Below, in pieces: positions 5,416 to 63,478 of a DNA stretch of 64,000 nucleotides (positions within the stretch are counted from its first letter, which is position 1; every line of letters begins with the position of its first letter). Under the pieces are notes generated by a model that did no database searches, had not been told where the DNA came from, and saw nothing but the letters and a program-made list of their open reading frames with translations. The DNA is from an uncultured virus (IMG/VR IMGVR_UViG_3300035210_000191) (lineage: Duplodnaviria > Heunggongvirae > Uroviricota > Caudoviricetes), in the IMG/VR virus record IMGVR_UViG_3300035210_000191; one strand, written 5' to 3'. The translations under genes and the position numbers were made by a program.

Positions 5416-5987
5416 CTGCCACTTTATACAAAATTTATAAAAAAATAATAAGAAGCTTCGGCTTCTTTTTTGTTTTTTTTATTGGTTGTTTTTATGACCG
5501 ACTAGTCAAAACATGTTCAATTATTTAAAATGATATTTAGCAACCTTTCAGTTTGTAAAAAAAAGCATTAAAGCAATATTACTTAAAAGACATCAACAAA
5601 CCTAAAAATGCCAATTTATTCATATTTTAATGTTTTTTTTAAATTTATTTTATTTTTATTTAAAAAAACTTTTAATCCTCTAAACACCTCTAAAAACGCC
5701 ATTTTGCATTCAATGGTAATGTGATTTTTTAATCAATGTTGTGAGTTTTTATGTTTTTGTAAGTTATTGATACTGCTCAAGAATATATCACAAATGATAT
5801 GTGCAAGTCATTTATTGTCATTTAAACCTCTATGCTAATATTTAATTTTTTATATATCTAAAAACGACAATAAAACCCTAAGTTCCTCTAATTAAAGGCT
5901 TTTTTTTAATGTTTTTCAAAAAATATCATCTTGACATAATTTTTAAATGTGTTAATTTCGTCATTATTAGATCAAAGGGAGACTAAT

Positions 5988-9757: not shown

Positions 9758-11092
9758 ATGACTACTAACAGCACAATGATTAAAGTTTCCCCAAAAGCAC
9801 TGCGTAAACATGCACTGAACTGCATCCACTCTCAGACGCCATTCTTCGTTTGGGGTAATCCGGGTATCGGTAAGTCTCGCATCCTGCAAGCTCTTGTTGA
9901 GAAAATGGGTTTCCACTTTGAAGACATTCGCTTGTCTCAAATCGAAAGCGTTGACCTTCGTGGTCTGCCAGCAAAAGACGAAAAAGTTACCCTTGTTGCA
10001 GTCATGGGTGAAGATGGTAAACAAAAAACCAACGAAAAAGGCGAACTCATGTTCACCAACGGTAAAGAAACTACCGTAACTTGGGCAATGCCTGACTTCC
10101 TTCGCCGTGCGAAAGAACAATGGGATAAATATAAGAAGCCAACGGCTTACTTCTTCGACGAATTGAACTCCGGTTCACCTGCGACAATGGCTGCTGCTTA
10201 CCAGTTCATCAACGACCGTCGTATCGGTTGCTTCGAACTCGGTTCTCAGGACGTGGTATTCGCGGCTGGTAACTTGGAATCCGATGGTGGTGTAACTAAC
10301 TCCATGCCGTTGCCTTTGGCTAACCGTTTCCGTCACTACTTGATGGACGTGAACACCGAACAATGGTTGAACTTCGCTTCTGAGGCTGGTATGCACCCTT
10401 ACGTGTTGGCTTACCTTTCAATCGGTGCGAACGGTAGCAAGTTGCAAGACTTTAACGTTGACCGTCTGTTGGCTTCCGACGAAAAAGCGTTCGCAACCCC
10501 ACGTTCATGGGAAATGTTGAGCAAGGCGTTGTTCGCAGCTTACGGTGAGCATCAAGCGATTGCTGGACACAAAACGCTTGCAGAAGAAAGCGAAGAATTT
10601 AACGTCTACGAAGAAGACGATAAAATCAACGAAAACGACATTTCTGTAATCGCTGCATCGTGTGTTGGTAGCGGTATTGCGGTCGAGTTTGCTGGTTTCG
10701 TGAAGGAAGGTATGGACTTGCCAAAAGCCCGCGACATTCTTGATGGTAAGAAGATGACTGTTGCGAACATGAAGGCTAAGACTTCCGCACAATACTTCAT
10801 TGCGAACGATTGCTCTCACGCACTGAAAGAAATGAAAACGAAGTTGGAAGAAGTTAAGAAAGAAAGCGGTGATAAGACTGCCGAGTATGACAAAGTGTTG
10901 AAGTCCTATGTCAAAAGCATGGAGAACTACATCTTGTTCGCAAAAGAACACTTTGCTCGTGAGTTGTTCGTCTTCGGTATCATCACCGTGATGTTGAAGC
11001 GTTACAAGGTTATGCCAATGCCTAACCACATGGACAAGAAAGTGTTTGACCTTGTGGCAACGGAGTTCAACGCGGCTCGCCTTAAAAACTAA
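9758..11092 (+). CDS. MoxR-type AAA+ ATPase (second copy)
   Basis: WGNPGIGKS, DIRLSQIESVDLRGLP, FFDELN, AAGN, PLANRF, FATPRSWE; AGGAG SD; strongly biased codon usage (AAC, TTC, CGT, GGT). Confidence 0.9.
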   Translation: MTTNSTMIKVSPKALRKHALNCIHSQTPFFVWGNPGIGKSRILQALVEKMGFHFEDIRLSQIESVDLRGLPAKDEKVTLVAVMGEDGKQKTNEKGELMFTNGKETTVTWAMPDFLRRAKEQWDKYKKPTAYFFDELNSGSPATMAAAYQFINDRRIGCFELGSQDVVFAAGNLESDGGVTNSMPLPLANRFRHYLMDVNTEQWLNFASEAGMHPYVLAYLSIGANGSKLQDFNVDRLLASDEKAFATPRSWEMLSKALFAAYGEHQAIAGHKTLAEESEEFNVYEEDDKINENDISVIAASCVGSGIAVEFAGFVKEGMDLPKARDILDGKKMTVANMKAKTSAQYFIANDCSHALKEMKTKLEEVKKESGDKTAEYDKVLKSYVKSMENYILFAKEHFARELFVFGIITVMLKRYKVMPMPNHMDKKVFDLVATEFNAARLKN

Positions 11093-11818: not shown

Positions 11819-13309
11819 ATGTCAATTCTCAAAGGAAAAAAGAAAGATGAAGTCAGCGAAAAGGGCGAAGAACTTTCCCCCATTTTGCAGGCTGTAAAAG
11901 AACGCACTAAGCCTTATACGCCAGAAGAAATTGCAATTGTTGAAGATAAAATCTATCAGGCACGTTCGAACTTTCTTATGCGTCAACCGTTCTTCGGCAT
12001 CATGGCGATGAACCTTGAGCTTGTGGATGCTTCCAAATGGCTTGTAACGGCTGCTACCGATGGTAAACACTTCTACTACAACGTAGGTTTCTTCCTGTTG
12101 CTTGAACCAGAAGAAATTCAGTTCGTGTATGGTCACGAAATCCTTCACGTTGCTTACGACCACTTTGGCCGTGCCATTGCGACTGTTAATGACTACGACC
12201 ATTATGTTGAAAATGACATGACGTTTGACGAAAAAATTCGCCTTCATGCGAAATTGGCTAACATTGCCGCTGACTTCTGTGTAAACCGCGACTTGGTTAC
12301 TTGCAAAGTGGGTACCCTTATTCGTAAAGAAGTTATCAAATTGTTCTACGATAAAAAGTATGACGATATGAGCATGGAAGAAATTTACAAAGAATTGTTG
12401 AAAGACCCTAACGCGGCCCAAAGCGGCACTACGCTTGATGACCACTCAGTTGGTACAGGTGTTCCGCAAGAAGGTAACGAAAAACGTAAGGCTGATCCTA
12501 ATGGTAAGGGCGAAGGCGAAAGTGATGGCGAAGGCGAAGGTCCAGAGAAAAGCGAAGGTGGTGCTGATTTCAAACCGCGTGATTTGACACCAGAAGAACG
12601 TGAAGAAATTATGCGTGACTTCAAAGATCGTATGATTAACGCCTACGACCAGCAGAAGGACAACGAAGAAGCTCGCCGTTCATCCGGTGGTTCTGACGCG
12701 GGTTCCTTGCCTGCTGACTTGGAGCGTTTGATTGAACGTATGCGTCGTCCAGAGATTAACTGGCGTCAATACATCCGCACTCGCATTACTTCATTGTTCC
12801 GCGAGAGTGACGATTGGAGCCGTCCGTCACGCCGTTCTTTCGATGGCGAATTCATTATGCCGGGTTTCCGTCAAGTTGAAAAAGTGGACATTCACATTGC
12901 AATCGACTGTTCCGGTTCTATTGGTGAAGTTGAAATGGCAGACTTCTTGTCAGAGATTGCCGGTATTACTCAGCAATACAAGCGTGACTTTAAGCTTCGC
13001 ATTTGGACATTTGATGGTAAAGTGTATCCACAGAGCTTGAAAGAGTATACGCCTTCAAACATTCGTAGTTTGCCTAAATACGAGTTCTTTGGTGGTGGTG
13101 GCACATCTTTCCTTGCAAACTGGGCGTTCATGCGTGAAAAGCGTATCAAACCAAAGCTTTTCATCATGTTCACTGACGGTTACACTGGTGATGGTTTTGG
13201 CGTGCCGAACTTCTGTGATACCATTTACGTGGTTAACACCGAAGTGATTATTCCAAAAGAATACGGTGCAACAATTCGCTACAAACCGCGTTCACAACAA
13301 GCCTACTAA
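11819..13309 (+). CDS. HExxH metallopeptidase-like + vWA domain protein (DUF2201-type), second copy
   Basis: PFFG...TAATDG...HEILH...NIAADFCVN; W.RPSRR; DCSGS, GGGTSF, FTDGY. Confidence 0.9.
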   Translation: MSILKGKKKDEVSEKGEELSPILQAVKERTKPYTPEEIAIVEDKIYQARSNFLMRQPFFGIMAMNLELVDASKWLVTAATDGKHFYYNVGFFLLLEPEEIQFVYGHEILHVAYDHFGRAIATVNDYDHYVENDMTFDEKIRLHAKLANIAADFCVNRDLVTCKVGTLIRKEVIKLFYDKKYDDMSMEEIYKELLKDPNAAQSGTTLDDHSVGTGVPQEGNEKRKADPNGKGEGESDGEGEGPEKSEGGADFKPRDLTPEEREEIMRDFKDRMINAYDQQKDNEEARRSSGGSDAGSLPADLERLIERMRRPEINWRQYIRTRITSLFRESDDWSRPSRRSFDGEFIMPGFRQVEKVDIHIAIDCSGSIGEVEMADFLSEIAGITQQYKRDFKLRIWTFDGKVYPQSLKEYTPSNIRSLPKYEFFGGGGTSFLANWAFMREKRIKPKLFIMFTDGYTGDGFGVPNFCDTIYVVNTEVIIPKEYGATIRYKPRSQQAY

Positions 13310-19763: not shown

Positions 19764-19838
19764 GCTTACAGTTTAAATCTTTCATATTTTTATTGTTTGT
19801 GTTATAATGCCTGTATAAGATATAGAAGGTTGAATTTA

Positions 19839-20846
19839 ATGTTATTATATAGGCTAGACGCAATTAGAAACTACGTTGTTTCTAAATACAATAAACCCTA
19901 CATTACTACGGAAGCTAGGAAAGAAGTCTCTGACTTCTTTTCTCCTAGTTACATGGTTGATCGTTATGAAATGAAAGAAATGTTTTTCGAAAATCATTAC
20001 ATGACCTCATTCCTTGTCAATGAAGATGACATGATGAAACACGTCTTGAATTTTAACCTTAAATTCAATCAAAATGTCGCTGCCCATAAAGTCATGAAGT
20101 TTGCTGATGAATTTCAACCTGAACAATATCATGTCTATAAAGTCGATAGCTATCCTGTTAACTACAACGAAATTGTTGAAAACCATTACATGAATGAAAG
20201 CATTCAACATTTGATTACGTTGAAAAAAGAAGCAGTGCGTATTGATAAAGAACGTAAATCTTATTTCAATTCCATTATGATGGACGACTTCCCAACCGAC
20301 ATTAAAACCAGTAAAGTTCTTTCACTGGACTTTGAGTATGACCAAGACCAGATTTATGAGCTTGGACTCAGTGTGTCTGACAATGGGGTTATATTTGACA
20401 AGTATCTGATTACTAACCTTAAAACAGGTAGCCGTGATAATCAGTTTCAATTTCAATTTGGTGAAACCAATATTGTACCTATACATACAATGGTGAATAC
20501 ACTGACACAATATCTATCTCAGGCTGATTACTTGCTTCTTCATGGTGGCTATAATGATATTGCTCTCTTAAATCGTTTTAATATTAAACTGGAAGATTTT
20601 CCAAATATTAAAGTGTTGGATACTTATCATTTCTATCCTAAGTATTTCAATAATAACAGCCAAGATAATTCCACCTTGTTGGATATCTTAAATCGTTTCA
20701 GTGTTGATTATAAGCATTTGCATAATGCGGGTAATGATGCTCACTACACTTTAGAACTTTTAATGAAGATGGATCACGCCATTGAAAATGGATTAACTGT
20801 TTCAAATCATCGAGCAAAAAAGGTTAAAAGCTCAAATCAAATGTAA
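19839..20846 (+). CDS. DEDDh 3'-5' exonuclease domain protein (paralog 1 of 4)
   Basis: SLDFEY (ExoI), LLHGGYND (ExoII), VLDT, HNAGNDA (ExoIII). Confidence 0.8.
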   Translation: MLLYRLDAIRNYVVSKYNKPYITTEARKEVSDFFSPSYMVDRYEMKEMFFENHYMTSFLVNEDDMMKHVLNFNLKFNQNVAAHKVMKFADEFQPEQYHVYKVDSYPVNYNEIVENHYMNESIQHLITLKKEAVRIDKERKSYFNSIMMDDFPTDIKTSKVLSLDFEYDQDQIYELGLSVSDNGVIFDKYLITNLKTGSRDNQFQFQFGETNIVPIHTMVNTLTQYLSQADYLLLHGGYNDIALLNRFNIKLEDFPNIKVLDTYHFYPKYFNNNSQDNSTLLDILNRFSVDYKHLHNAGNDAHYTLELLMKMDHAIENGLTVSNHRAKKVKSSNQM

Positions 20847-20911: not shown

Positions 20912-21889
20912 ATGAACCTATATCGAATTTACTCAATCAAAGATGTCTTTATGAAGCAGTTCTCTCCTGATCTTAGGAAAATTGCTGCTCCATTTTTTCA
21001 TCTGCAAAGTCTCTTTTCAAATCTTCACATTGAAAATTTGTATATGAGCACACACCACATCAATTCTATTTTGATTGACGAAGATGGCTTGTCAAAAATT
21101 CAGTTGTTTTCTAAAATGAAATTTGGCAAACATACGAGTCTTGCTGAGATCTCAAAAGAAGCTTGTGTTTATAATGAGGATGAATTTACAAAATTCAAAA
21201 TCAATAACCCACACGATGTGACGGCTATTATTAAAGACCATATGCGTCAAGACCATATTCAGAAAATTATTCGATTGAAAAAAGAATCGCTTCGGGAAGC
21301 TGCAGTTAAAAAAGAAATCTTGCGTTCACGTATTCATAATGATTATGACAAAAGTTTTCACAAGAAGAAAACAGTCTCTATTGATTTTGAATACATCAAT
21401 CTTGATATTTTTGAGTTGGGTATTTCCGTCTATGAGAATGGTAAACAATCAAGCTATCATTATTTGATTAAAGAAAACTATGTCAAAAAGAAAACTAAAC
21501 CAGAATTGCAATTTATGTTTAATTTTGGAGACACTACTATTATTCCAGAAGCTTCTATTGCTTCCGTGATTAAAGAGCATCTGGTAGAGGCTGATTATCT
21601 TTTGCTTCATGGTCACAGTAATGATTATTTAATTCTCAGAAAATACGGTCTGGATATGGAAAAAGAAGAAAAGATGAAAATCATGGACACTATTCTTTAT
21701 TACAAGAAGTTCTTTAATCCAGAGCAAGGTGACGCTCTTACATTGAAACGTATGTTGCATGTTTTTGATATTGAGCCATCCAATATGCATAACAGTGGTA
21801 ATGATGCTGACTTCACATTAAAACTGTTTTCTGAAATGCATAATCGCTGCGATAAAAGGATGAAGATGTTAATGAAATCTGTTGCTTAA
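20912..21889 (+). CDS. DEDDh exonuclease domain protein (paralog 2 of 4)
   Basis: SIDFEY, LLHGHSND, MDT, HNSGNDA. Confidence 0.8.
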   Translation: MNLYRIYSIKDVFMKQFSPDLRKIAAPFFHLQSLFSNLHIENLYMSTHHINSILIDEDGLSKIQLFSKMKFGKHTSLAEISKEACVYNEDEFTKFKINNPHDVTAIIKDHMRQDHIQKIIRLKKESLREAAVKKEILRSRIHNDYDKSFHKKKTVSIDFEYINLDIFELGISVYENGKQSSYHYLIKENYVKKKTKPELQFMFNFGDTTIIPEASIASVIKEHLVEADYLLLHGHSNDYLILRKYGLDMEKEEKMKIMDTILYYKKFFNPEQGDALTLKRMLHVFDIEPSNMHNSGNDADFTLKLFSEMHNRCDKRMKMLMKSVA

Positions 21890-30050: not shown

Positions 30051-31061
30051 ATGAAATACTATGCCATCAATATGATTAAAGGACACATGAATGAAGTGTT
30101 TTTTAAAAATAACACAAGTAAAGAAGAAAGAAGACAATTTAACGACCTCATTAATCTTGTTCACTTGAACGAAGTATTAGGTTTTGATAAAATTCATTTA
30201 GGTGCAGGTGCGGATATAAGAAATGTATTTGATGAAGACCAAATGGAAAAAGTGAATTTATACTTGATGATGAAAAACAAAGCCTTTTTAATTCCAGAAA
30301 AGACACTTAAAAAAGCTATCTATAAACAAGATAACATTATGACATTTGAATATCAAACTCCTGAAGACTTAATAACTGCCAGAATAGCTGCCGAACAATC
30401 ACCTGATTATATAATGAATCAATTAAAAGAAGAACAGATAGCGGCTGAGAAGAAAGCATTGTATGCTATTTCTGGTGATGTTACTGGTGTCGATTTTGAT
30501 AATAAAACCTATCTTTCTATTGATTTTGAGTTTAATCCGATGGCTGTTGATAAGTTTCATATTAGACAAATTGTTGAAGTAGGATTAAGTTATATTAATG
30601 GTGACGATATAACAACTGAGCACTATATTGTCAATGAACATAGAGATTTAAAATCAGATAGAAAAAAGAAACTTCAAGATTCTTTTAACTTTGGAACAAG
30701 TAAGTTTATTGATAGTGCTGATGTCATTGGTATTTTGGAGGACGCATTAACTAAATCAGGCAACCTTGTTTTCCACGATAAATCATGTGATATTAGATAC
30801 TTTGAAAGAAATAAGATATCGTTGGATAATCATAGAATTTATGACACTCAAGCTGTCTACAAATACAATATTTCCCCAGATGGTGAATCGAGTAACAGTA
30901 AAAGACTTAAAGATTTTTTAGATGATAATATGATAGATTCTAAAAACACTCATAATGCTGGTAATGATGCTCACTATACCTCAATGGTATTTAAAGCCCA
31001 AGTTTATGAGATACTTAATCAACCTAAAAAATTAGTTAAAACACATTCTATTCAACCATAA
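30051..31061 (+). CDS. DEDDh exonuclease domain protein (paralog 3 of 4)
   Basis: SIDFEF, VFHDKSCD, IYDTQ, HNAGNDA. Confidence 0.8.
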   Translation: MKYYAINMIKGHMNEVFFKNNTSKEERRQFNDLINLVHLNEVLGFDKIHLGAGADIRNVFDEDQMEKVNLYLMMKNKAFLIPEKTLKKAIYKQDNIMTFEYQTPEDLITARIAAEQSPDYIMNQLKEEQIAAEKKALYAISGDVTGVDFDNKTYLSIDFEFNPMAVDKFHIRQIVEVGLSYINGDDITTEHYIVNEHRDLKSDRKKKLQDSFNFGTSKFIDSADVIGILEDALTKSGNLVFHDKSCDIRYFERNKISLDNHRIYDTQAVYKYNISPDGESSNSKRLKDFLDDNMIDSKNTHNAGNDAHYTSMVFKAQVYEILNQPKKLVKTHSIQP

Positions 31062-31135: not shown

Positions 31136-32140
31136 ATGAAATATTACGCGATTAATAGTATTAAGGGAAACATGAATCTTCTCTTATTTAAAACATTAAC
31201 CAAAGAAGAACGCACACCGTTCAGTCAATTTTTTAACATTGTACATCTTAATGAAGTATTAGGATTTAATACCATTCATATTGGTGGCGGATCTGACGTT
31301 AGAAACTTGTTTGATGAAGATCAAATATCAAAAATAAACCTTTACCTCATGATGAAAGATAAGAGGTTTGTCATCCCCGATAATATTCTTGAAAAAGCTA
31401 TTTATAAATCAGATAACATTATGACGTTCGATTATAATACACCACGAGATTTAGATACTTCCAGAAAAATTGTTATGTCAACTCCATCTCACCTTATCGA
31501 GAAGATGAGAGCTGAAAAAACAAAAGCATCGAAACGAGCTGTTCTTGATACTTATGGTGATATTAAAGATGTTGATTTTGATAAAAACACTTATTTATCT
31601 ATCGACTTTGAATTTAATCCTAATGTTTCTGATGTATTTGATTTAAAACATATTACAGAAATGGGGTTAAGTTACATCAATGGTAAAACTATTACAACTG
31701 AACACTACATTGTGAATGAGCATAGAGAAAATAAAACAGACAAGCGAAAGACTCTTCAAGATTCTTTTAATTTTGGTGTTAGTCAGTTTATTTCAAGTGA
31801 TGATGTTAGGGCCATTCTGGAAGAAGCTTTAACAAAAGTTCAGCACCTTGTCTTTCATGAGCAATCCTGTGATGTAAAGCATTTTGAAGAAAATAATATG
31901 AATTTAGACAAACATAGAATTTATGACACCCAAGAAATTTATAAAAAACACCTTGCTCCTGTTGGTCAAGAAGCAATGGGAAAAAAACTTAAAGCCTTTT
32001 TGGATGACAATATGATCATCTCAAAAAATATGCACAATGCGGGCAATGATTCTCATTATACGGCTATGTTGTTTAAATCTCAGGTAAAAGAAGTATTAGC
32101 ATTAGAACGCAGAAAAACCTACGCTCCAAAACTTAAATAA
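31136..32140 (+). CDS. DEDDh exonuclease domain protein (paralog 4 of 4, recent duplicate of 30051-31061)
   Basis: SIDFEF, VFHEQSCD, IYDTQ, HNAGNDS; long identical peptide runs with the previous ORF. Confidence 0.8.
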   Translation: MKYYAINSIKGNMNLLLFKTLTKEERTPFSQFFNIVHLNEVLGFNTIHIGGGSDVRNLFDEDQISKINLYLMMKDKRFVIPDNILEKAIYKSDNIMTFDYNTPRDLDTSRKIVMSTPSHLIEKMRAEKTKASKRAVLDTYGDIKDVDFDKNTYLSIDFEFNPNVSDVFDLKHITEMGLSYINGKTITTEHYIVNEHRENKTDKRKTLQDSFNFGVSQFISSDDVRAILEEALTKVQHLVFHEQSCDVKHFEENNMNLDKHRIYDTQEIYKKHLAPVGQEAMGKKLKAFLDDNMIISKNMHNAGNDSHYTAMLFKSQVKEVLALERRKTYAPKLK

Positions 32141-39690: not shown

Positions 39691-40021
39691 CGATTTTACC
39701 AATAATCCGTTATTTTACATACAAAAACAAAATATAGTTCTATTTTTACTTGTTTATTCTATTGTATTAAAAAAATGGCATGTAAAAACCCGTTCTATTT
39801 TAATAGCGGCTACTTGTAAAAAACCGTTTTAGCCAAGACAATTCACTATGTCTTGATTTTTTTTTGTAACATTTTGACATAAACCCGTTATAATAAAATA
39901 CAAACTGTTAAATGAAGGCTCTTGACAACTTTTAAAAAAAATATATACTTATTGATTGAAGAATGTCTTCGGAGTTCTTCACAATAAACTAAACTAAATC
40001 TGCCGAATGGGGGTATTAAAA

Positions 40022-41926
40022 ATGAGTAAAGTAATTGGTATTGACTTGGGTACAACAAATTCTTGTGTATCTATATTTGAAAATGGTAAACAAAAAGTAA
40101 TTGAGAACGCAGAAGGAGCAAGAACTACTCCATCTATCGTCTCTTATAGCAAAGAAGGTGAAACTTTGGTTGGGCAACCAGCAAAAAGACAATCTATCAC
40201 CAACCCAACACAAACGTTCCACGCCATCAAACGACTTATTGGTCGTAAATTTGATGAAGAGGCTGTACAAAAAGACATCAAGCTTGTCCCTTACAAAATT
40301 GTAAAGGCTGACAATGGTGATGCATGGGTAGAAGTTAAAGGTAAGAAGACTTCACCACAACAAATCTCAGCCGAAATTTTGATGAAAATGAAGAAAACTG
40401 CAGAAGACTACTTGGGTGAACCAGTAACAGAAGCTGTTATTACTGTGCCTGCTTACTTCAATGATAGTCAAAGACAAGCCACAAAAGATGCGGGTCGTAT
40501 CGCTGGTTTAGATGTTAAACGTATTATTAACGAACCAACAGCGGCTGCATTAGCTTATGGCATGGATAAATTTAAGAAAGATAGCACTATCATAGTTTAT
40601 GACTTGGGTGGTGGTACTTTTGACGTATCCGTTATTGAGATTGCAGGTGTTGATGGGGAATCTCAGTTCGAAGTGCTTGCAACCAATGGTGATACTTTCC
40701 TTGGTGGTGAAGACTTTGACAACTTGCTCATTGAATACATTGTAAGTGAGTTTAAGAAAGAAAGTGGTATTGATATTAAACAAGACCCACTCGCTATGCA
40801 ACGTATCAGAGACGCTGCTGAGAAAGCTAAAATTGAGTTGTCTTCAACACAACAAACTGATGTTAACTTACCTTATGTGACTGCTGATAGTTCTGGACCT
40901 AAGCACTTGAACGTTATTATCACCAGATCTAAGTTTGAAGGTTTAGTTGAAGAGTTAGTGGAAAGAACTATTCTTCCATGCAAAACAGCTCTAAAAGATG
41001 CTGGTATTGAATTGTCAGCGATTGATGAAGTTATCTTGGTTGGTGGTCAGACTCGTATGCCACTTGTGCAAAAACGTGTTGCCGAGTTTTTTGGCAAAGA
41101 ACCACGTAAAGATGTAAACCCTGATGAAGCTGTGGCTATTGGTGCAGCCATTCAAGCAGGTGTTATCACAGGTGCTGTGACTGACGTATTGTTGTTAGAC
41201 GTAACGCCATTGACGTTAGGTATTGAAACAATGGGTGGTGTATTTACTCCATTGATTCCTAAGAACACCACTATTCCAACGAAGAAGACAGAAATGTGTT
41301 CAACAGCGGATGACAATCAAACTGCAGTAACTATTCATGTGTTGCAAGGTGAACGTAAACAAGCGTCTGGTAACAAATCGTTGGGTCGTTTTGACTTAAG
41401 AGACATTGCACCAGCACCAAAAGGTCAACCTCAAATTGAGATTACTTTTGATATTGATGCTAACGGTATTTTGAATGTGTCTGCTAAGGACAAGAATACT
41501 GGTAAGTCTCAATCTGTTGTCATTAAAGCTAACTCTGGTTTGAGTGAAGCTGAGATTCAACAAATGATTAATGACGCTGAAAAGAACAAATCAGATGATG
41601 AGAAGTTTGCTGCATTAGCTGATAGCCGTAACAAGGCTGACCATTTGGTTCACGAAGCTCGTAAAGTGATGAATGAGCCAACCTTGGATAGCACTGATAG
41701 ATTGAATCTTGAAAACGCTATTTCCGATTTAGCTGGTTTGATTAAATCTGGATCTAAGGCAGAACTTGATTCTCGCTATGCCAGCCTTGAAAAAGTGCTT
41801 CACGGTATTACTTCTAAGCAATATCAGCCTGATCAAGCTCAACAGGCACAACAGCAACAAGGTCAAAATCAAGGCACTAGCCAAGATAATGATTATATTG
41901 ACGCTGAGTTTACAGAGCAAAAGTAA
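40022..41926 (+). CDS. dnaK: Hsp70 molecular chaperone DnaK
   Basis: [49 protein letters not shown] linker, C-terminal DAEF; no dnaJ or grpE adjacent; UUCG terminator at 41941-41969. Confidence 0.97.
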
Positions 41927-49480: not shown

Positions 49481-50431
49481 GTGATTATGCTTACGATTGA
49501 AGAAATTAAAAATTACTTAAATATGCCAGAACTCCCTATTGCCCATACTAATAGTGAGCGGAATTTTTATGTTAAAAAAATATATGATGATTATTATTGT
49601 TCAAATCACGATCAATCTATCATTATTCGAGCCTTTGACGATTTTGAACCCATTAGTGTTTCAACGTCTCGCTATTTTACTGTATACCTTAATGATGTTG
49701 TCATTTTGACGTATGCGGGCGATCACTCTTATAATTCAGATGTCTTCAAGATTTTTGATGGATTACCCTTTATGACATTAATACCAGAACATTTTGATTT
49801 TTTCGTTAATGAAGTCAATACAAAAGGTCAAGATTGCATTGTATATTTTGATCGAATGTCTGAAAAATCTATTGACTATGAAGGTGATCAAAATATCTCC
49901 ATTCTTTATGTATCGTTGAAGGAAAAAAAATATAAGGATAAATCTTTTTACAAAATTGTGAAGGGTGAACTGTTGCACTCGTATGGCTTTTACACCAATC
50001 AATATTTTGGCAATAATGAATATAAGAAATATTTTAATAAAATAGCTTATCTGAAACAATATTATCAGTTATACACACTTATGATTTATCAATCTATTGA
50101 TGCTCAGAACGTTCGCTTTCTACTCAATAATTATGATTTTGAAATCATACTGAACAATTCAGCAAATAATACTCAATTGTTTACTGAACCTAACCATTCG
50201 GTAGCTTATCAATATGAAAAAAATAAACGTCACTCTGCTATTTCTGTTGACACCACAGGTGCTACTGATTGTATTGAAGCGTTGATGGATCAATTGATTA
50301 ATATTTTATTCAAAGAATACCCATGTGCTGAATTCTCCCAGTTTTTGTCAGAAGCAGGGCGTTATCATTCATCGTTGACGGATCACGAATTTGATGACTA
50401 TATCCAATTATTCAGGATGAGCACTATCTAA
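49481..50431 (+). CDS. Hypothetical protein with C-terminal MxxI motif
   Basis: GAGG SD, TGCTATAAT; ends QLFRMSTI. Confidence 0.7.
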   Translation: MIMLTIEEIKNYLNMPELPIAHTNSERNFYVKKIYDDYYCSNHDQSIIIRAFDDFEPISVSTSRYFTVYLNDVVILTYAGDHSYNSDVFKIFDGLPFMTLIPEHFDFFVNEVNTKGQDCIVYFDRMSEKSIDYEGDQNISILYVSLKEKKYKDKSFYKIVKGELLHSYGFYTNQYFGNNEYKKYFNKIAYLKQYYQLYTLMIYQSIDAQNVRFLLNNYDFEIILNNSANNTQLFTEPNHSVAYQYEKNKRHSAISVDTTGATDCIEALMDQLINILFKEYPCAEFSQFLSEAGRYHSSLTDHEFDDYIQLFRMSTI

Positions 50432-50458
50432 TGGTTCTCATACATTAATTGAAGGCGT

Positions 50459-50638
50459 AAAAAAAGACCTAACATCACTGATAGGTCTTTAAGTTTAAGG
50501 GAAGCGATCAGGTATATCAGCCAATAGAGTTAGAAGGAACCGTGATCATAGCCTTGAATAAGTAGATATGGAAAGCGAATAGGTAAATCGTCATTTAAAA
50601 GAATGTTTAGAAGGAACCTGCTTCATAGCCTTATCTAA
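50459..50638 (-). ncRNA. Putative structured ncRNA locus A: two tandem hairpin units plus terminator
   Basis: No ORF in the track. Units 50564-50636 and 50495-50557 each contain (RNA sense) AGGCUA-N7-GGUUCCUUCUAA...ACC...UUCC. Upstream promoter; terminator hairpin 50463-50490 followed by a U-tract. Confidence 0.7.
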
Positions 50639-50643
50639 GTACA

Positions 50644-50671
50644 ATATTAGCATATTATTTTTAAAAGTCAA
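50644..50671 (-). promoter_or_regulatory. Sigma70-type promoter for ncRNA locus A
   Basis: Minus strand TTGACT(50671-50666)-16 nt-TAATAT(50649-50644) with extended -10 TG. Confidence 0.65.
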
Positions 50672-50747
50672 TACTTTTGTTTGTTTTTTCTTTTAAATTA
50701 TGCTAAAATTATTTTTATTAAAAAAACTTAATTGAAGGATTACTATT

Positions 50748-51143
50748 TTGAGCGACTACGAAGAATTTGATAAGAGAGCAGTCTTAAATAATATTATGAT
50801 TGTTGACCAATTGTTTAAAGCTAATGGAGCCATCCATAAAATTTGCTTTGATATGCAACGTGATTATGAGACTAATCGTGAAGATGGCTATAATGGTTTT
50901 AGTTTTAGCCTAGATCCTGATATTTATAATTTTCATCTTTATGCAAATGATTTCACATTAAGTGTTGATCATAATAGTGTTTTTTGTTTTTATGGAGGAT
51001 TTGGTGTTCAATTTAAGCCATCACCGTCATCAACAATAGAGCAATTTAAACAGTTACTGCTTATTGTGATTAATATGAATTCAGAACAAAAATTTGATAA
51101 TATTGAGCAGTTCATTGACCTGCATAACATGATATACATCTAA
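50748..51143 (+). CDS. Short member (C-terminal half only) of the 50.7-56.9 kb paralog array
   Basis: NI.IVDQLF...G matches the second half of downstream paralogs; TTG start after AAGGA; ends LHNMIYI. Confidence 0.6.
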   Translation: MSDYEEFDKRAVLNNIMIVDQLFKANGAIHKICFDMQRDYETNREDGYNGFSFSLDPDIYNFHLYANDFTLSVDHNSVFCFYGGFGVQFKPSPSSTIEQFKQLLLIVINMNSEQKFDNIEQFIDLHNMIYI

Positions 51144-51160
51144 CGCATTAAGGTGATTAT

Positions 51161-51931
51161 ATGCTTTTAACAAATGCTTCACGTTTACTGGAAGTTTATT
51201 TTCACATTAGCGATTTGGCTAAATTTGAGATTGATACGACATTCGCCAGTGAATTACTCTCACCCAGCGAAAAACGTTTTTTAATGGACGCTGTTCGTGC
51301 ATTAGCAAACGACATATTATCAGTTTCAGAAGACTTTAAAACCAGTATTAATTTTTATATCCGTCAATCAGGTTGCTTGATTGAGATGGATTCTTCTTAT
51401 CCGTTTTTAATCCAATCATCTTTTAATTTTGAACTGTATGAACCTTTAATTAAACATAAGTCGCTTGATCAGTATGTGAACGATTTAATTTATCAAAATG
51501 ATAGATATCGAACCTATGGAAGTTATTTGACTCTTGTTGATTTTAGATCTTTCTTTGAAAATATTAGATTTATTGATAACTTATTTGAATTTGATGGCAA
51601 ATTTTATTCGTTTTATCAAGACATTGATTTTACATTAGGGGCACGAGAAGTTAAATTTGATTCTTTTAATTCTTTTGTACATTGTGGTGAAAACCCTCTG
51701 TTAAAAATTCAATTTGGGGATCTTCTGGTCACCATCTCACCTGATGAATTTTCTTTTGCTATTATGGGTGGTTCCGCTATTTTGACCATATCTAAGCAAA
51801 GCAGACGGAGTTATCAACAGAAAAAAGATAACTTAGCAACACTTATTATAGATATGTATAATATGGAGTTAATGACAGAAGCTGACACCATGAAAAATTT
51901 ATTACTATTGATTAGAATGAAGGCTATTTAG
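51161..51931 (+). CDS. Paralog-array protein (DD.L...SYPF domain), C-terminal MxxI motif
   Basis: LANDIL...DFKT...IEMDSSYPF; NIRFIDNLFEFDGK; ends LIRMKAI. Confidence 0.75.
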   Translation: MLLTNASRLLEVYFHISDLAKFEIDTTFASELLSPSEKRFLMDAVRALANDILSVSEDFKTSINFYIRQSGCLIEMDSSYPFLIQSSFNFELYEPLIKHKSLDQYVNDLIYQNDRYRTYGSYLTLVDFRSFFENIRFIDNLFEFDGKFYSFYQDIDFTLGAREVKFDSFNSFVHCGENPLLKIQFGDLLVTISPDEFSFAIMGGSAILTISKQSRRSYQQKKDNLATLIIDMYNMELMTEADTMKNLLLLIRMKAI

Positions 51932-51961
51932 TCTTCATTTTTTTGTTGCTTTATTCTAGGC

Positions 51962-52148
51962 AAAAAAAAACCTGTATCGCTACAAGTTTGTTTTATTTGA
52001 GGGAATTGACAAGGTTTAATCAGTTTAATATTTACAAGTTAAGTTAGAAGGAACCTTAATGCTAGCCTCGGTGAAATAGTTGGTATGGAAATCGAAATGG
52101 TGAATCTTAGAATGAGTTAGAAGGAACCAACTTCATAGCCTTACCGTT
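51962..52148 (-). ncRNA. Putative structured ncRNA locus B: two tandem hairpin units plus terminator
   Basis: Units 52082-52145 and 51999-52069 carry the same AGGCUA-N7-GGUUCCUUCUAA core. Terminator AAACUUGUA-GCGA-UACAGGUUU(U)n at 51962-51989. Confidence 0.7.
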
Positions 52149-52153
52149 TGTAT

Positions 52154-52182
52154 ATAGTATGATATTCGGACTAAAAAGTCAA
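52154..52182 (-). promoter_or_regulatory. Sigma70-type promoter for ncRNA locus B
   Basis: Minus strand TTGACT(52182-52177)-17 nt-TACTAT(52159-52154). Confidence 0.7.
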
Positions 52183-52244
52183 GCGTTTTTTTCTTGATTT
52201 AATGATTTTAAACTGTTAAAGTGTTTACATAATGGAGATGTTCG

Positions 52245-53087
52245 ATGTTTGATGAAAATCTGCCATATCAGTTAAAAACTGGTAGGCAATTAATAAAGTT
52301 GTCTGATTTAAAAAATGCTGAACTCATTGGTGTTCAGGATGAACACAATTTAAAAATTTCTCGTTTTTTAACGATTCTTGCTGATGATATTTTGTGTATG
52401 CGTGATGATGTGAAAACTTATGCTTTTATAGAAATTGTTGATGATGTATTTTCTATATGTCTAGACTATTCTTATCCTTTTTTGGAGTTTTTAAACAGCA
52501 CTCACCCTATTAAGATAAATAAATCATTAAATAGAGTTTATTTTCGTTTAAATCTAAATCTATCAATAGATTTAATCACTCCCACATTGTTGGCGATATT
52601 CCTTGATGAATTAAAAGCTGATGGTTGGTATAAGTTTAATGATGATGATGAGCGAGAGTCGGAAACTGGTTTGATGGAACAGTTTATTCACATCAATGCA
52701 TTGGATACTTTTTATGTATTTGATATCATCGATCAGTCATTGGGCTATGATGGAAAACTGTCCAAACTGGTTAAAAATAATATTTACTATGTAATGCCAT
52801 TCTCAGAAGAAGATGAGTTCTCAATGTTTGAATTTAGAAACTTTAATTCAAGTAATATTGAGTTGACACTCACTAACCATGATTTCTACATTAAAGTTAT
52901 CAATAACACAATTAGATTTGAATATTTATATGATTCGATGGAGTTTAATTTAAATAAAAAACATCCAGTTGCCTTTAATATTAAAAAATTTACTAAATTC
53001 TTTTTAAGTTTTTACAATATTCAACACGACACGGACCATGATGATTTACCACGCTGGATTAAACTTCAGGAAATGATAGCCATATAA
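52245..53087 (+). CDS. Paralog-array protein, C-terminal MxxI motif
   Basis: ILADDIL...SYPF; IIDQSLGYDGKL; ends LQEMIAI. Confidence 0.75.
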   Translation: MFDENLPYQLKTGRQLIKLSDLKNAELIGVQDEHNLKISRFLTILADDILCMRDDVKTYAFIEIVDDVFSICLDYSYPFLEFLNSTHPIKINKSLNRVYFRLNLNLSIDLITPTLLAIFLDELKADGWYKFNDDDERESETGLMEQFIHINALDTFYVFDIIDQSLGYDGKLSKLVKNNIYYVMPFSEEDEFSMFEFRNFNSSNIELTLTNHDFYIKVINNTIRFEYLYDSMEFNLNKKHPVAFNIKKFTKFFLSFYNIQHDTDHDDLPRWIKLQEMIAI

Positions 53088-58950: not shown

Positions 58951-61347
58951 TCACTTTAGCAGTGAGTTGATTTCAATTTTTTCGTAACTGTTTTCTGTAT
59001 TCCTACTGGTAAATACATAAGCACTATCAGTCGTAATCGCTACATCTGTATCGTCGTTCAATATCGGGGTTTCACCGACTTTAACACTTTCAAACAAATC
59101 AAACACTGACGGCAATGTGTTCAAATACTCAACAAATGCTGGCATTCTCTCAGACAGCAAAGTGCCGTTGGTTTCGGCGGAATGCACATGACCATACAAG
59201 TTAGCATCCATGTAAACTACTTTCCTTTCAACCAAGTCGAGGTAAGCCACATACTTGGTCAAATTCTTACCTTTTACTTCAAAGACAAATTGAGCACGGC
59301 TTGGTTCGTAAAGATTACCTTCCTCAGCGTTCTCACCCATTTGCAATGTGCCCACTAAATCATCAGCCGCATCGAAAGGTTGGCTGTTGAATGACAAGAT
59401 ATTCCAAACAGCATAACGCACACCAGAATTAACCAGTTTGTCGATATACAAGTCAATCATCTGGCAACCACGACCTTGCGTATCTTGACTGATAACAGGG
59501 TCACCCGAGAAGACAGCACCAGCGTCTTGGGTTAAATAGGTATCTTGACCTGTATAAGAATAAGCAGCATTCCAGCAGCAAGCACCTTTTGAACCCCAAT
59601 TTTCATCAAAGAAGTTCCAGCTATTATCAAACCAGATGTTACCCGAATCTTTCATCTGCCAGTAACTTGCACTTCGAATGAAATTGATATTTTCAGGCAT
59701 ATCAAATACGGTACCACGACCATAATTAGCCGCAAGGTTTTGATCATTGGTTTGAAGCTTAATCTTACTTGTAGCTTTATCCAGCATAACGCCTTTTGGA
59801 AAGAGAACTTCCATACGCTTAGCAATCTCTGTATTGACAGCAGTTACGATAGTTTCTACAGCTTCTGCAGACAACATGACTTTGCCATTTTTAATAGGCT
59901 TATATATTTTTTTCTCAGGTGCTACATAACGTTGATACATAGGCTTTGGTGAAGGAATAAACATAGGCTCAGGAGCAGGCTCAAGATTACCTTTGAACTT
60001 TTCAATCAACATCGCTAAGGCGTCACTGGATGGGATTCCAGACTTAACTTCTGTAATAGCCGGTTGATCAACCTCAGTTTTTACGACTTCGACAATAACT
60101 GGTTCCATAACATCAACTGCTTTTACTTTTTGTTTCTTTTCTGCTTTCACAGGTGCTACGAATTCTTTTTCCACTGATGTGTCTTTTTCAACACGTTGAA
60201 TAAAGTGGGCATTTGTCCAGTTACCTTTTGGGGCATAGATAAAGTGCTGACGATCATTAATAGTGGTTACATACTTTTTCAACTTCAACAGTTGCAACGT
60301 ATCAAATTGATCAATCTTAGCCACAATCGCATCCACAGCTTTCTCACCAAACACTTCGTAAAGCTTGTGGAAACGACGCATCAAGTCACCTTGACGGTTT
60401 GAAAGCATATCAAACACTGTGTCATCTTTGGTCAACACTTTGTTTTCAACCTTGGCGTTGAAGCTTTTAAGCTCACCATTGCACAAAGTGCCATAGACAG
60501 CCGTTACTTTCGGGAAGTTGTAATCTTTTGGGTGAAGCTGGAACATAAATTTCTTCCAGTCTTGTTGACGCATAGCCACATCATCAGCCAAGTTATTAGA
60601 CTTATTTAACAAAGACAACAAAGCCTTACGTTCTTTACGAGAGAATTTTTTGAATTTTACTTTGGTGCGAAGTGAAACATCCGCATCGGACATTGCAGCA
60701 GCCAAACGCATGACATCGGTAGCGTCTTTAATAGTGAAATTAAGGCCGCTTTCAATCGCTTGCTTGATAATTACGATACCGTTCTCTTTGAAGCCGAAAT
60801 CGCTCAAATTGATGGTTTCTTGATTGTTGTTAGTCACCAACTGGATTGCGAAATCCTTTTGTTGGTCATTCCAACGGTTTTTAGATTGAATAAGAGTTTC
60901 CTTGATGTTATTCAAGGTGTCTTCTTTTTCAAGGTGCAGCACTTTCAAGTTCTTTTGATCTTTGAGAGCTGGACGCTCTACTTTGTCATCAGCAAAATAG
61001 TCTGGACTAAACCCAACATACATCAAAATTTGGCAGAACCAGTATTCAGCTTCAGATTTATCAAGCACTTCTTTTGGGAAGTTTTTGTAAACAACAGCCG
61101 AATCCATATCACGATCAGAAGCAGTCACCTCTTTGAAAGCAGGTTCCACAGACAACCAGAAGGATTCTAGATCTTGTGCTGAATAGGTTTGAAGTTGTTC
61201 GATGACTTCTCTGGATGGAGTCCAGCCATAGTGAACCATGTTGGCAAATACAGTAGACAGTTCTTCTTTGCTCGCAGGTGTGCTGGCAACAACGCGAGTT
61301 GCTTGCACAAAATTGTTTGCCAAAAGAATTGTGTTTGTATTTATCAT
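58951..61347 (-). CDS. Large helical-repeat + TerD-like domain protein (MXAN_6230/SCO0854-like family, no RING)
   Basis: YKNFPKEV...EAE, TDVMRLAAAMSDADVSL...KFKKFSRKERK.LL.LL, LHP.DY, R.GDL.R, YGRGT, FSGD...GCQMIDL...GVRY (TerD-like), YEPS; AGGAG SD; promoter TTGACT(61414)-17-TATTAT. Family assigned from memory. Confidence 0.65.
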   Translation of the reverse strand: MINTNTILLANNFVQATRVVASTPASKEELSTVFANMVHYGWTPSREVIEQLQTYSAQDLESFWLSVEPAFKEVTASDRDMDSAVVYKNFPKEVLDKSEAEYWFCQILMYVGFSPDYFADDKVERPALKDQKNLKVLHLEKEDTLNNIKETLIQSKNRWNDQQKDFAIQLVTNNNQETINLSDFGFKENGIVIIKQAIESGLNFTIKDATDVMRLAAAMSDADVSLRTKVKFKKFSRKERKALLSLLNKSNNLADDVAMRQQDWKKFMFQLHPKDYNFPKVTAVYGTLCNGELKSFNAKVENKVLTKDDTVFDMLSNRQGDLMRRFHKLYEVFGEKAVDAIVAKIDQFDTLQLLKLKKYVTTINDRQHFIYAPKGNWTNAHFIQRVEKDTSVEKEFVAPVKAEKKQKVKAVDVMEPVIVEVVKTEVDQPAITEVKSGIPSSDALAMLIEKFKGNLEPAPEPMFIPSPKPMYQRYVAPEKKIYKPIKNGKVMLSAEAVETIVTAVNTEIAKRMEVLFPKGVMLDKATSKIKLQTNDQNLAANYGRGTVFDMPENINFIRSASYWQMKDSGNIWFDNSWNFFDENWGSKGACCWNAAYSYTGQDTYLTQDAGAVFSGDPVISQDTQGRGCQMIDLYIDKLVNSGVRYAVWNILSFNSQPFDAADDLVGTLQMGENAEEGNLYEPSRAQFVFEVKGKNLTKYVAYLDLVERKVVYMDANLYGHVHSAETNGTLLSERMPAFVEYLNTLPSVFDLFESVKVGETPILNDDTDVAITTDSAYVFTSRNTENSYEKIEINSLLK

Positions 61348-61502
61348 GTTCAATATTTCTCCTAATTGATTTAATGTAACATCAAATAATACGCTCATAA
61401 AGCACTTAAGTCAAGCACCTTTATGCTTTTTTTTTTGATTTTTTGATAGCATATCTTCTTATATTATGATATCATTAGCCATCAATAATGTGGAGAGTAT
61501 TT

Positions 61503-62293: not shown

Positions 62294-63478
62294 ATGTATC
62301 CAGTTATCAAGCACGGCTCAGAAGATTCTTTGGACATTGATGCGTATATCATCATTCCAGAACCACTCACTATGCAAGAAGCAAAAAAACTTTGCGATTC
62401 TTACAAAGAAGTGAACGGCAACCTTTTGAGCGTTAAAGACGGTGTGGTTAACTGGTGCTATAAAGGTACAGTGGATGAGTGTAACAACTCTATTCTGGCA
62501 ACCTATGCTCTGCACAAACAAGCAGCAGCCAACCCGATTACTGCAGCTTTGCCGCGTTCTTATGCATTGAAAATGATTCGTACTGTTCGTGGATTGCTTT
62601 CTTATCATTCTCGCACTGAAAAGCGTGAAGAAGTTAAAAAAGCATTACAATCTGCTGATATGTTGTTCAAGTTGGATGTGTTGACTGGCATTGATTTGCG
62701 TGATGTGGCTGACTATCAAAAATCTTCGTTGGTTGAAACCTACAAGTTCTTTGCTTTTCAGTTGGGTCAAACTATGGCACTGTTGAAAGACAACGTAGAG
62801 CTGTTTACTAAAAGCTCAGTGGCCGAATACTACCCAGAGTTGAGTGGTTACTTGCAGCGTAAAGAAGGCGAACCTGTAGACGCATTGCAAAAAATGTGGG
62901 CTGATTTTGGCACTTACTTGAAAGAAACTGTTCGTAAAGTTGAAAAGCATGAATTATATGCCACTGATTATCAGGGTGTTCGTGAAGTGTTCGATTGTAA
63001 AAAAGAAATCATCTTGCCTCCAGTGGTTGTATTCGATATTGATGGCACTTTGCTGGATGAAAAACACCGTGCTCAATACCGTGATGTGAAAGATTGGGAT
63101 AACTATTTTGACTTGTGTCACTTGGATACCCCTATTCAACACATTATTGATTTGACCAAAGAGTATCGTGCTAAAGGTTTCGAAATTTGGTTGATGAGTG
63201 GGCGAGTGGATCGAATCATGGACAAAACAATTAAATCTATGGAAGATTATGGGGTTTGTTATGACCGTATCAAATTGCGTAGCCCTGAAAACCGTGTTCC
63301 AGATTTTGTTATCAAGCCTGCTTGGATTTCAAAATACATCGGACTGGAACGTGTTGTAGCTGTTTATGATGACACTGACCGTGTAATTGAAGGATTCCGT
63401 AAAAAAGGATTGAATGTTATTGATGTCAAGTTGATGGCGGCTCCTGTTCAAGCAAAGAAGCCAAAATTAAAGCCTTGA
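62294..63478 (+). CDS. Fusion of nucleotidyltransferase-like N-domain and PNKP-type HAD phosphatase
   Basis: N-terminal HGSEDSLDID (GS...DxD); C-terminal FDIDGTL, LMSGR, PDFVIK, YDD (HAD motifs I-IV as in the T4 PNK phosphatase domain); AAGGAG SD. Confidence 0.75.
   Translation: MYPVIKHGSEDSLDIDAYIIIPEPLTMQEAKKLCDSYKEVNGNLLSVKDGVVNWCYKGTVDECNNSILATYALHKQAAANPITAALPRSYALKMIRTVRGLLSYHSRTEKREEVKKALQSADMLFKLDVLTGIDLRDVADYQKSSLVETYKFFAFQLGQTMALLKDNVELFTKSSVAEYYPELSGYLQRKEGEPVDALQKMWADFGTYLKETVRKVEKHELYATDYQGVREVFDCKKEIILPPVVVFDIDGTLLDEKHRAQYRDVKDWDNYFDLCHLDTPIQHIIDLTKEYRAKGFEIWLMSGRVDRIMDKTIKSMEDYGVCYDRIKLRSPENRVPDFVIKPAWISKYIGLERVVAVYDDTDRVIEGFRKKGLNVIDVKLMAAPVQAKKPKLKP

Follow-up and report, generated by a model that had tools for sequence, protein, structure and literature searches.

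A structured small-RNA family syntenic with a predicted TerD-fold protein family in phage contigs and bacteria may form a Ro60/Y RNA-like particle

We analyzed a 64,000-nt stretch of DNA from an uncultured virus of the Caudoviricetes (IMG/VR record IMGVR_UViG_3300035210_000191; hereafter the window, meaning the whole stretch), in which a reading of the letters alone, here called the original prediction, had proposed a noncoding RNA family represented by two promoter-driven transcripts, each with two tandem covarying hairpin units. The four units share a defined secondary structure, belong to an RNA family present in phage contigs and bacteria, and are syntenic with the genes of one protein family, phrog_33734, whose window member is an 815-aa protein (P0001). 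Judged by their sequence features, the two window loci are best explained as independently transcribed minus-strand small-RNA genes of two tandem units each. With a probability of roughly two in three, we take the RNA to be the cognate partner of a trans-acting RNA-protein particle that would resemble Ro60 and its Y RNAs in plan while having another protein at its core; that the two bind directly, that they form a particle, and what it does are points we infer from synteny and from this analogy.

The exact 12-mer TTAGAAGGAACC occurs only four times in the window, on the plus strand at positions 50530, 50607, 52044, and 52117, against a chance expectation of about 0.008 over both strands (2 x 64000/4^12); a shuffle mean of 5.02 for the 12-mer allows up to two mismatches and is uninformative on exact matches. 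Motif search and reading of the window bore out the original description of each copy as being followed by seven variable bases and then TAGCCT, and on the minus strand the outer stems read as had been named, differing among the four units and complementary within each (AGAUA/UAUCU, AAGG/CCUU, GGUA/UACC, and GAGG/CCUC). The units are stem-loops of about 65 to 90 nt, arranged as two promoter-to-terminator cassettes with two tandem units in each (Table 1). The promoters and U-tailed terminators expected at both loci were recovered as sigma-70-like consensus matches and as U7- and U9-tailed hairpins that end the two transcripts in minimum-free-energy folds; both hairpins are missing from the terminator-scan list. 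Transcripts of about 180 to 190 nt would be delimited by these promoter-like and terminator-like sites. No gene lies 3′ of the RNA genes on their strand, because the next open reading frame (ORF; 49481 to 50431) is convergent. Fold z-scores of the whole transcripts are unremarkable (gene A, −2.35; gene B, −1.70), and the structural evidence is therefore the covariation among homologues rather than folding energy.

Homologues are numerous. An 18-base pattern taken from the window recovered a unit in three IMG/VR contigs, and R1, a covariance model built from 12 units, finds many diverged units in other contigs; in the window it reports only the four units (58.9 to 74.1 bits, by construction), with the next best hit at 14.2 bits and an E value of 0.22. 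One locus, L003, on a 437-kb IMG/VR contig repeats the layout of the window, with two cassettes that each comprise a promoter, two units, and a terminator. A looser pattern, AGGCTA-N5-9-GGTTCCTTCT, matched 26 loci; the 3′ half of a unit is present at 5 of them (on 4 contigs), and the other 21 look like chance or coding sequence. Two alignments (A3 and A5) yielded 138 distinct units from phage contigs and bacteria, of which two without the loop anchor were dropped, leaving 136 that were cut by position relative to the tract UUCCUUCU and the 3′ end, not by pairing.

The consensus order of a unit is P1, J1, P2, loop, P2′, J2, P1′. The last two pairs of the outer helix P1 are G-C in 122 and 133 of the 136 units; J1 is CUAU or CCAU in 103 of 136, J2 is mostly GCUUU, AAUUU, or GAUUU, and P2 is a plain 8-bp helix of free sequence. 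The loop opens with UUCCUUCUA, spans 21 to 75 nt, and mostly ends in A. Its beginning, TTCCTTCTA in 111 of 136 units (summed over loop starts), is the most conserved unpaired element, a count made after an anchor search that itself demanded T[TC]C[CT]TTCT. Two parts of the original prediction hold for the window but not for the family. The 12-mer is exact in all four window units, but the conserved core is shorter and consists of GGCYAU, UUCCUUCU, and GCUUUCC. Likewise, the bulged inner helix is a feature of the window's sublineage, in contrast to the plain helix of the consensus: window units are a variant whose P2 terminates in GG/CC and in which the tract's first U is paired with a loop-closing A, giving a GGU/ACC helix with one bulged nucleotide. 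The distal loop is unstructured in these units.

Pairing in P2 is maintained across widely varying sequences. Standard pairs fill 88.3% of P2 cells, compared with 47.1 ± 1.4% for 1,000 partner shuffles (maximum, 51.6%) and 37.6 to 45.8% when the 3′ strand is slid by 1 to 2 nt. The set includes 103 distinct P2 5′ strands, 81 of the 136 units pair at all eight positions, and all six standard pair types occur at every P2 position save the last; inner P1 positions pair in 93 to 100% of units. For the first 12 units, none of 500 shuffles reached the observed covariation score, and so the claim of a real, covarying structured RNA stands. G·U pairs outnumber A·C pairs 106 to 56, mildly favoring the strand that had been proposed, which is the minus strand. 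Nor did the RNA match a named family, in line with the original prediction. In the window, Rfam 15 gave no family at gathering thresholds and, at E-value thresholds, only noise and a weak mmgR-like match (24.7 bits, E = 0.025) that covers only the 3′ end of gene A, essentially the terminator; at the loci of 11 relatives, E-value thresholds gave noise only and no family for the RNA. Two further ideas were dropped. A conserved P3 hairpin in the loop is not generally supported (median z, +0.26; 40 of 136 loops at or below −1 kcal/mol), with loop hairpins of this type found mainly in GC-rich bacteria, and as guides the window loops did poorly, their complementary sites in the window measuring 9 to 12 nt against shuffled maxima of 11 to 15. 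The thought that CUUCUAA might mimic a tRNA-Arg anticodon loop was also set aside.

The RNA is tied to one protein family in both directions of search. A phrog_33734-family ORF, encoding a protein of roughly 700 to 815 aa, adjoined the units in each of the first contigs examined. In the window, the P0001 gene shares the strand of both RNA genes and lies 7 to 9 kb upstream of them; in the 437-kb relative, the gene of a P0001 orthologue (61% identical) ends 67 nt before the first cassette and is followed by two 2-unit cassettes. Starting from the protein, units adjoin the gene on its own strand, just upstream or downstream, at 16 of 16 IMG/VR loci, which count as 13 distinct loci because L057, L058, and L062 are near-identical, as are L061 and L063; a second paralogue in the 437-kb contig (L050) has no unit within its 3.6-kb locus. 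Among bacteria (Actinomycetota, Myxococcota, Cyanobacteria, Chloroflexota, and Alpha- and Betaproteobacteria), units are present at 29 of 31 loci, 23 of them found by covariance model and 6 more by core motif, the two unit-less loci being L095 and L096 (2-kb contig cut at the gene). Starting from the RNA, the pattern GGCYAT-N8-TTCCTTCTA gave at least 126 stretches. Flanks were examined for 80, and R1 confirmed units in 46 of these; a tblastn search with 11 family proteins placed the protein gene within 4 kb in 37 of the 46 confirmed loci versus 0 of the 34 unconfirmed ones. Counted from contig names, the confirmed loci lie on 38 contigs, 29 of which carry the protein gene. Synteny with a single protein family in both directions thus lends strong, though indirect, support to the claim that the RNA is protein bound.

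The position of the RNA relative to the gene is free. It may be 5′, 3′, on the opposite strand (3 of the 29 bacterial loci: L083, L092, and L093), or kilobases away, and arrays reach about nine units and can flank both sides of the gene (e.g., L112). Other neighbors are heterogeneous, and a conserved third gene was rejected because neighbors vary. The HAD/PNKP-type phosphatase-domain gene near P0001 (Table 1) recurs in the 437-kb relative (L052; PF25109, E = 2e-16) and is conserved in these two relatives only; a PRTase gene neighbors the protein gene in one bacterium. Genes for methionyl-tRNA synthetase, EF-Tu, and FtsH-like proteases flank the protein gene in L055, L066, L057, and L093, none of them conserved across loci.

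Table 1. Coordinates of the RNA genes, their predicted signals, and the associated protein genes in the window
Feature	Position	Strand	Basis or remark
RNA gene A, units A1 and A2	50455..50640	-	Between promoter-like site and U-tailed hairpin; predicted ~180-nt transcript
Promoter-like site, gene A (TTGACT, 16/17 nt, TAATAT, TG before -10)	50644..50671	-	Consensus match only
Unit A1 (P1 AGAUAAGG/CCAUAUCU, J1 CUAU, P2, loop UUCCUUCUAA...)	50563..50638	-	Covariance model R1, 74.1 bits
Unit A2	50492..50561	-	Covariance model R1, 67.6 bits
Terminator-like hairpin with U7, gene A	50459..50492	-	Fold; also 3′ of convergent plus-strand ORF ending at 50431
RNA gene B, units B1 and B2	51962..52150	-	Sequence and fold; predicted ~185-nt transcript
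Promoter-like site, gene B (TTGACT, 17 nt, TACTAT)	52154..52182	-	Consensus match
Unit B1	52080..52148	-	Covariance model R1, 70.8 bits
Unit B2 (J1 = CUAG, P2 irregular)	51994..52075	-	Covariance model R1, 58.9 bits
Terminator-like hairpin with U9, gene B	51962..51990	-	Fold
Gene of P0001 (815 aa)	58951..61398	-	phrog_33734, E = 8.6e-149
HAD/PNKP-type phosphatase-domain gene (context only)	62294..63478	+	PF25109, E = 5.9e-17; two genes from the protein gene

Relatives of P0001 are labeled "hypothetical" wherever they are named. Pfam assigns no domain to 36 family members and none to P0001 at an E value of 0.01, PADLOC gives P0001 no family at E ≤ 1, and a sequence search of solved structures returned nothing for it. 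In a profile search of 1.84 billion proteins, 2,081 representative clusters matched at E ≤ 1e-10. The AlphaFold2 model of P0001 (predicted local distance difference test score [pLDDT], 82.7; predicted template modeling score [pTM], 0.80) consists of a helical-repeat domain (residues 20 to 400), a disordered linker (409 to 503), and a beta-rich C-terminal part. In this model the C-domain (567 to 756) has the TerD beta-sandwich fold: it aligns with 2qz7_B at Z = 13.4 (root mean square deviation, 2.5; 154 residues) and with 2kxt at Z = 13.0, and Foldseek gives E values of 4.5e-5 (3ibz) to 9.5e-4 for six TerD-type chains or relatives. The PF02342 (TerD) profile matches 0 of the 36 members at E ≤ 10, and an SGD motif is invariant throughout the family. 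The nearest named family is NCBIfam NF041916 (RING_SCO0854; E = 4e-46), whose match covers residues 506 to 754 of P0001 with 157.6 bits against a cut-off of 600 bits. Deinococcus radiodurans, the model organism for Rsr and Y RNA, also has a below-cut-off match to NF041916.

The N-domain, modeled alone at a pLDDT of 85.8, is harder to place. Foldseek finds nothing for it at E ≤ 0.001, and the best score in a wide VIA-align search (Z = 6.8) extends over just 69 residues. Its longest alignments are to Ro60 chains (9l5y_B, Z = 5.8 over 207 residues; 2nvo_A, Z = 5.4 over 189; 1yvp_A, Z = 4.9 over 220), in the noise range for helical repeats. Since no sequence match accompanies these low scores, a relationship between the modeled N-domain and Ro60 is at most a weak structural hint.

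A link to Y RNAs comes from the distal loops of relatives. In five related phage contigs (loci L106, L111, L112, L135, and L139), the unit that comes first after the gene matches YrlA of Rfam, scoring 32.9 to 38.4 bits against a gathering score of 69 (E = 2e-5 to 3e-3). In L139, this unit folds in the order P1, J1, P2, UUCCUUCU, a T-arm, a closed acceptor-like hairpin, a D-arm, P2′, J2, and P1′, with a z-score of −3.84 and none of 200 shuffles folding as well. None of the five contigs, three of which are estimated to be complete, has a gene for TROVE, the Ro60 domain. Motif scanning and reading, with no covariance model, also revealed the T-arm, hairpin, D-arm order in units of the Myxococcota locus L092 and the phage loci L172 and L189, and a T-arm-like hairpin directly after the tract in L134, L161, L211, and L235 to L237; actinobacterial loci are among those with similar modules. 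In a Dactylosporangium genome (G009), a tRNA-like gene (L227, 3487 to 3614, minus strand) scoring 55.6 bits with the Rfam tRNA model lies directly upstream of a TerD-like paralogue; ARAGORN calls no tRNA there. The anticodon loop of this gene holds 58 extra nt that can be read as a circularly permuted version of the motif (P2′, GCUCU, P1′, tetraloop, P1, UCAU, P2, UUCCUUCU). The original comparison with Y RNA is therefore apt, given that relatives carry a YrlA-type tRNA mimic in the distal loop.

Neither half of the canonical system was found in the window itself. The YrlA model (RF02553) finds no match at its gathering score or at E ≤ 0.05, TROVE is absent from the 39 window ORFs scanned, and tblastn with five Ro60 proteins returned nothing better than E = 0.014, in a vWA-type ORF. 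Relative G002 has no TROVE gene either. One 480-kb IMG/VR record, a huge phage or provirus (G005, loci L099 and L100), encodes canonical Ro60 (TROVE plus vWA, in a 561-aa ORF) about 400 kb from its TerD-like protein and RNA units, with no R1 units beside the Ro60 gene; the Ro60 and TerD-like systems can therefore coexist.

Sequencing libraries provide further information on conservation. DNA sequencing runs contain the locus. Library contigs come from X21 and X23 (wastewater RNA libraries of one study), X20 (a library only guessed to be RNA), and X24 (soil). Gene A is aligned by contigs from X23 (50459 to 50656), X20 (50460 to 50629), and X21 (50520 to 50709) and gene B by contigs from X21 (51938 to 52220) and X23 (four pieces across 51915 to 52240), all at 88 to 95% identity. 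All four libraries also align to 50735 to 50987, and X21 to a 35-nt piece at 51560 to 51594; the rest of the 2.1-kb region has no library-contig coverage. Because coverage is confined to these stretches, the RNA loci are better conserved than most of their coding flanks.

A Ro60/Y RNA-like particle is the best reading of these results because synteny holds in both directions, the position of the RNA is free, and a tRNA mimic can occupy the distal slot. The RNA would be a dedicated partner of the helical-repeat and TerD-fold protein. The constant part of a unit, made up of P1 and the G-C pairs that close it, the internal loop CYAU/GCUUU, the P2 helix of 8 bp, and the unpaired tract UUCCUUCU, would be the module that the protein recognizes, and the distal loop would serve as a free "effector" slot, unstructured in the window and occupied by a tRNA mimic in some relatives. 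By analogy with Ro60 and Y RNA, the particle would be expected to take part in surveillance or repair of RNA or in tRNA-related conflict during infection; the surveillance or repair role is what we infer from that analogy, with weak hints from the PNKP-type phosphatase neighbor in the window and its closest large relative and from the tRNA-mimicking distal modules. On the same analogy, the closest functional counterpart of the four "plain" window units is YrlB rather than YrlA. A broader proposition, on which we are evenly divided, is that helical-repeat and TerD-fold proteins, a widespread family of about 2,000 clusters at 50% identity, constitute a second, Ro60-independent Y RNA system together with their own modular RNAs, in which a conserved stem for binding is joined to a distal module that is free or mimics tRNA. 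Such a system would supply a surveillance or repair particle to large-genome bacteria and, in multiple copies, to huge phages during infection, and it may have descended from, or converged on, the Ro60/Y RNA design.

Several observations weigh against a Ro60/Y RNA-like particle. Support for protein-RNA binding is synteny, which is indirect, and 9 of the 46 R1-confirmed loci lack a protein gene within 4 kb. Expression of the RNA genes is predicted, and the library contigs, which derive from relatives, carry no strand or end information and come from libraries that may contain DNA. The 136 units were gathered by means of a model in which pairing adds to the score, and they are related by descent; the shuffle test therefore overstates their independence. 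On the protein side, the Z scores of 4.9 to 5.8 for Ro60 fall under the level that VIA-align treats as meaningful for helical repeats, TROVE (PF05731) is matched by 0 of 36 family members at E ≤ 10, and hhalign of the N-domain with a phage Ro60 profile (15 sequences of low diversity) gives a probability of 0.6%. On the RNA side, the four window units have no tRNA-like module by ARAGORN, Rfam, or a scan for T- and D-loop motifs.

Many relatives also carry the RNA in the 5′ or 3′ untranslated region (UTR) of the gene, which fits cis regulation too. The gap between such units and the coding sequence is often 10 to 100 nt on the start-codon side or about 10 nt on the stop-codon side, with the units on the gene's strand and no terminator between, as would be expected of an autoregulatory element in the leader or trailer of the protein's own mRNA. 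The protein or another factor would bind this element to control translation or stability, and the window copies would be displaced or decoy versions of it. We nonetheless think this unlikely. The window cassettes have promoter-like and terminator-like sites of their own, face a convergent gene, and lie 7 to 9 kb from the protein gene, as expected for action in trans; moreover, the RNA is on the opposite strand at three bacterial loci, arrays of up to about nine units occur on both sides of the gene (e.g., in L112), and some units enclose tRNA-mimic modules. The frequent 5′ UTR position, together with the conserved internal loops and tandem layout, would also suit a tandem riboswitch or other ligand-sensing RNA controlling the TerD-like gene or its neighbors, but with no downstream gene on the RNA strand in the window, an RNA frequently located 3′ of the gene or on the strand opposite to it, and downstream genes that vary widely, we give that possibility very little credence.

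Trans action need not involve the protein. A small RNA that acts by base pairing, its UUCCUUCU tract pairing with purine-rich Shine-Dalgarno-like sites (AGAAGGAA) independently of the protein, would explain why the most conserved unpaired element is a pyrimidine-rich tract like an anti-Shine-Dalgarno sequence, and the mmgR-like match at the 3′ end of gene A points the same way. However, that match is essentially the terminator, complementary sites of the variable loops in the window do not exceed the shuffled level, and a free-standing regulator would not be expected to be so strictly syntenic, in both directions and across phyla, with one protein family, all of which makes this account improbable. 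It is scarcely credible that the repeats act at the DNA level, as an operator for the divergent plus-strand genes or as a recombination site: the four exact 12-mers do lie upstream of plus-strand ORFs, but pairing kept across 103 P2 sequences indicates constraint on RNA, G·U exceeds A·C on the proposed strand, and flanking genes differ between loci.

Measured against known systems, the closest parallel is Ro60 (Rsr) with its Y RNAs (YrlA, RF02553, and YrlB). In the accessible text of Chen et al. (2014; PMC4201824), bacterial Y RNAs are 80 to 130 nt long, consist of a long stem bearing the Ro60 site plus a large internal loop, and are encoded by genes that adjoin the Ro60 gene. Set beside the features observed here, the two systems share small RNAs beside the gene of a large protein, often in tandem arrays; a long stem, made by pairing of the 5′ end with the 3′ end, that contains a conserved internal loop; a variable distal module that in some members is a T-arm/hairpin/D-arm tRNA mimic; and occurrence in both bacteria and phages. 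They differ in that a TROVE gene was not found in the window or in the contigs of six relatives and in that a vWA domain there corresponds to a TerD-fold C-domain here, with no TROVE sequence similarity. The Ro60-binding motif given in that text, GNCGAAN0-1G, was not found in the four window units, where CYAU/GCUUU and UUCCUUCU stand in its place. Unlike YrlA proper, the YrlA-like units of relatives stay under the gathering score at 33 to 38 bits, and the window scores nothing. A preprint on three tRNA-mimic families concerns, in its accessible part, Rfam families other than this RNA.

The C-domain shares its predicted beta-sandwich with the TerD family (Ter, tellurite resistance and phage inhibition), and HAD phosphatases and PRTases of the types seen beside the protein gene, in two phages and one bacterium respectively, are Ter components in the accessible text of PMC7824862. 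Unlike TerD, however, P0001 is four times longer, carries a 400-aa helical domain, and has no Pfam TerD match; the literature searched describes no RNA partner for a TerD protein. NF041916 (MXAN_6230/SCO0854 family RING domain-containing protein) resembles P0001 as its nearest named family, and the RNA also accompanies actinobacterial paralogues that are closer to NF041916, but the match is partial and far below cut-off, and our literature search found no paper naming SCO0854 or MXAN_6230. ToxI repeats are about 36 nt long. In contrast to type III toxin-antitoxin systems of the ToxI kind, the partner protein has no defense-model match and the units are structured stem-loops of about 65 to 90 nt. 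The literature searched yielded nothing on the motif strings, on TerD with an RNA motif, or on a link between YrlA and TerD.

Systems in which an adaptor RNA works with a protein are known, as exemplified by Ro60/Y RNA; what appears to be new is this class of RNA, this protein, and the combination of the two. To our knowledge, Ro60 with its Y RNAs is so far the sole protein known to use modular, tRNA-mimicking small RNAs as adaptors, and the present results suggest the same design in a different, wholly uncharacterized protein family that occurs in at least six bacterial phyla and many phage contigs of 100 to 485 kb. If this is correct, it would open a functional approach to a large orphan protein family and supply an RNA partner for the poorly understood TerD fold, and one could test how general a strategy tRNA mimicry by adaptor RNAs is. 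With the covariance model and the defined motif, the RNA family is directly searchable, and experiments are feasible because bacterial hosts include cultured strains of Mesorhizobium, Pararhizobium, and Dactylosporangium.

The window has a G+C content of 29 to 39%, no tRNA genes by ARAGORN, and mostly orphan ORFs. Because its closest relatives are IMG/VR contigs of 100 to 485 kb, we treat it as probably a piece of a huge phage. A blastn search with 50440 to 52250 matched nothing in phage and plasmid collections. Three plus-strand ORFs that separate or follow the RNA cassettes (50748 to 51143, 51161 to 51931, and 52245 to 53087) have no Pfam or PHROG match, and their DNA looks paralogous by eye. 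If the window is phage DNA, two of its plus-strand genes are unusual cargo: a full-length Hsp70/DnaK ORF (40007 to 41926; E = 3.6e-253) and a methyl-accepting chemotaxis protein with two PAS domains (5949 to 7289). Four paralogous plus-strand ORFs of about 330 aa encode a DEDDh_C (DNA polymerase III epsilon-like C-terminal) domain and form two adjacent pairs 9 kb apart (19797 to 20846 with 20912 to 21889, and 30051 to 31061 with 31136 to 32140). The same strand also carries two sets of an AAA ATPase and a DUF2201/VWA metallopeptidase-like protein (376 to 1644 with 2993 to 4303, and 9758 to 11092 with 11819 to 13309), which resemble MoxR-VWA pairs; one of the AAA ATPases has a BRCT tail.

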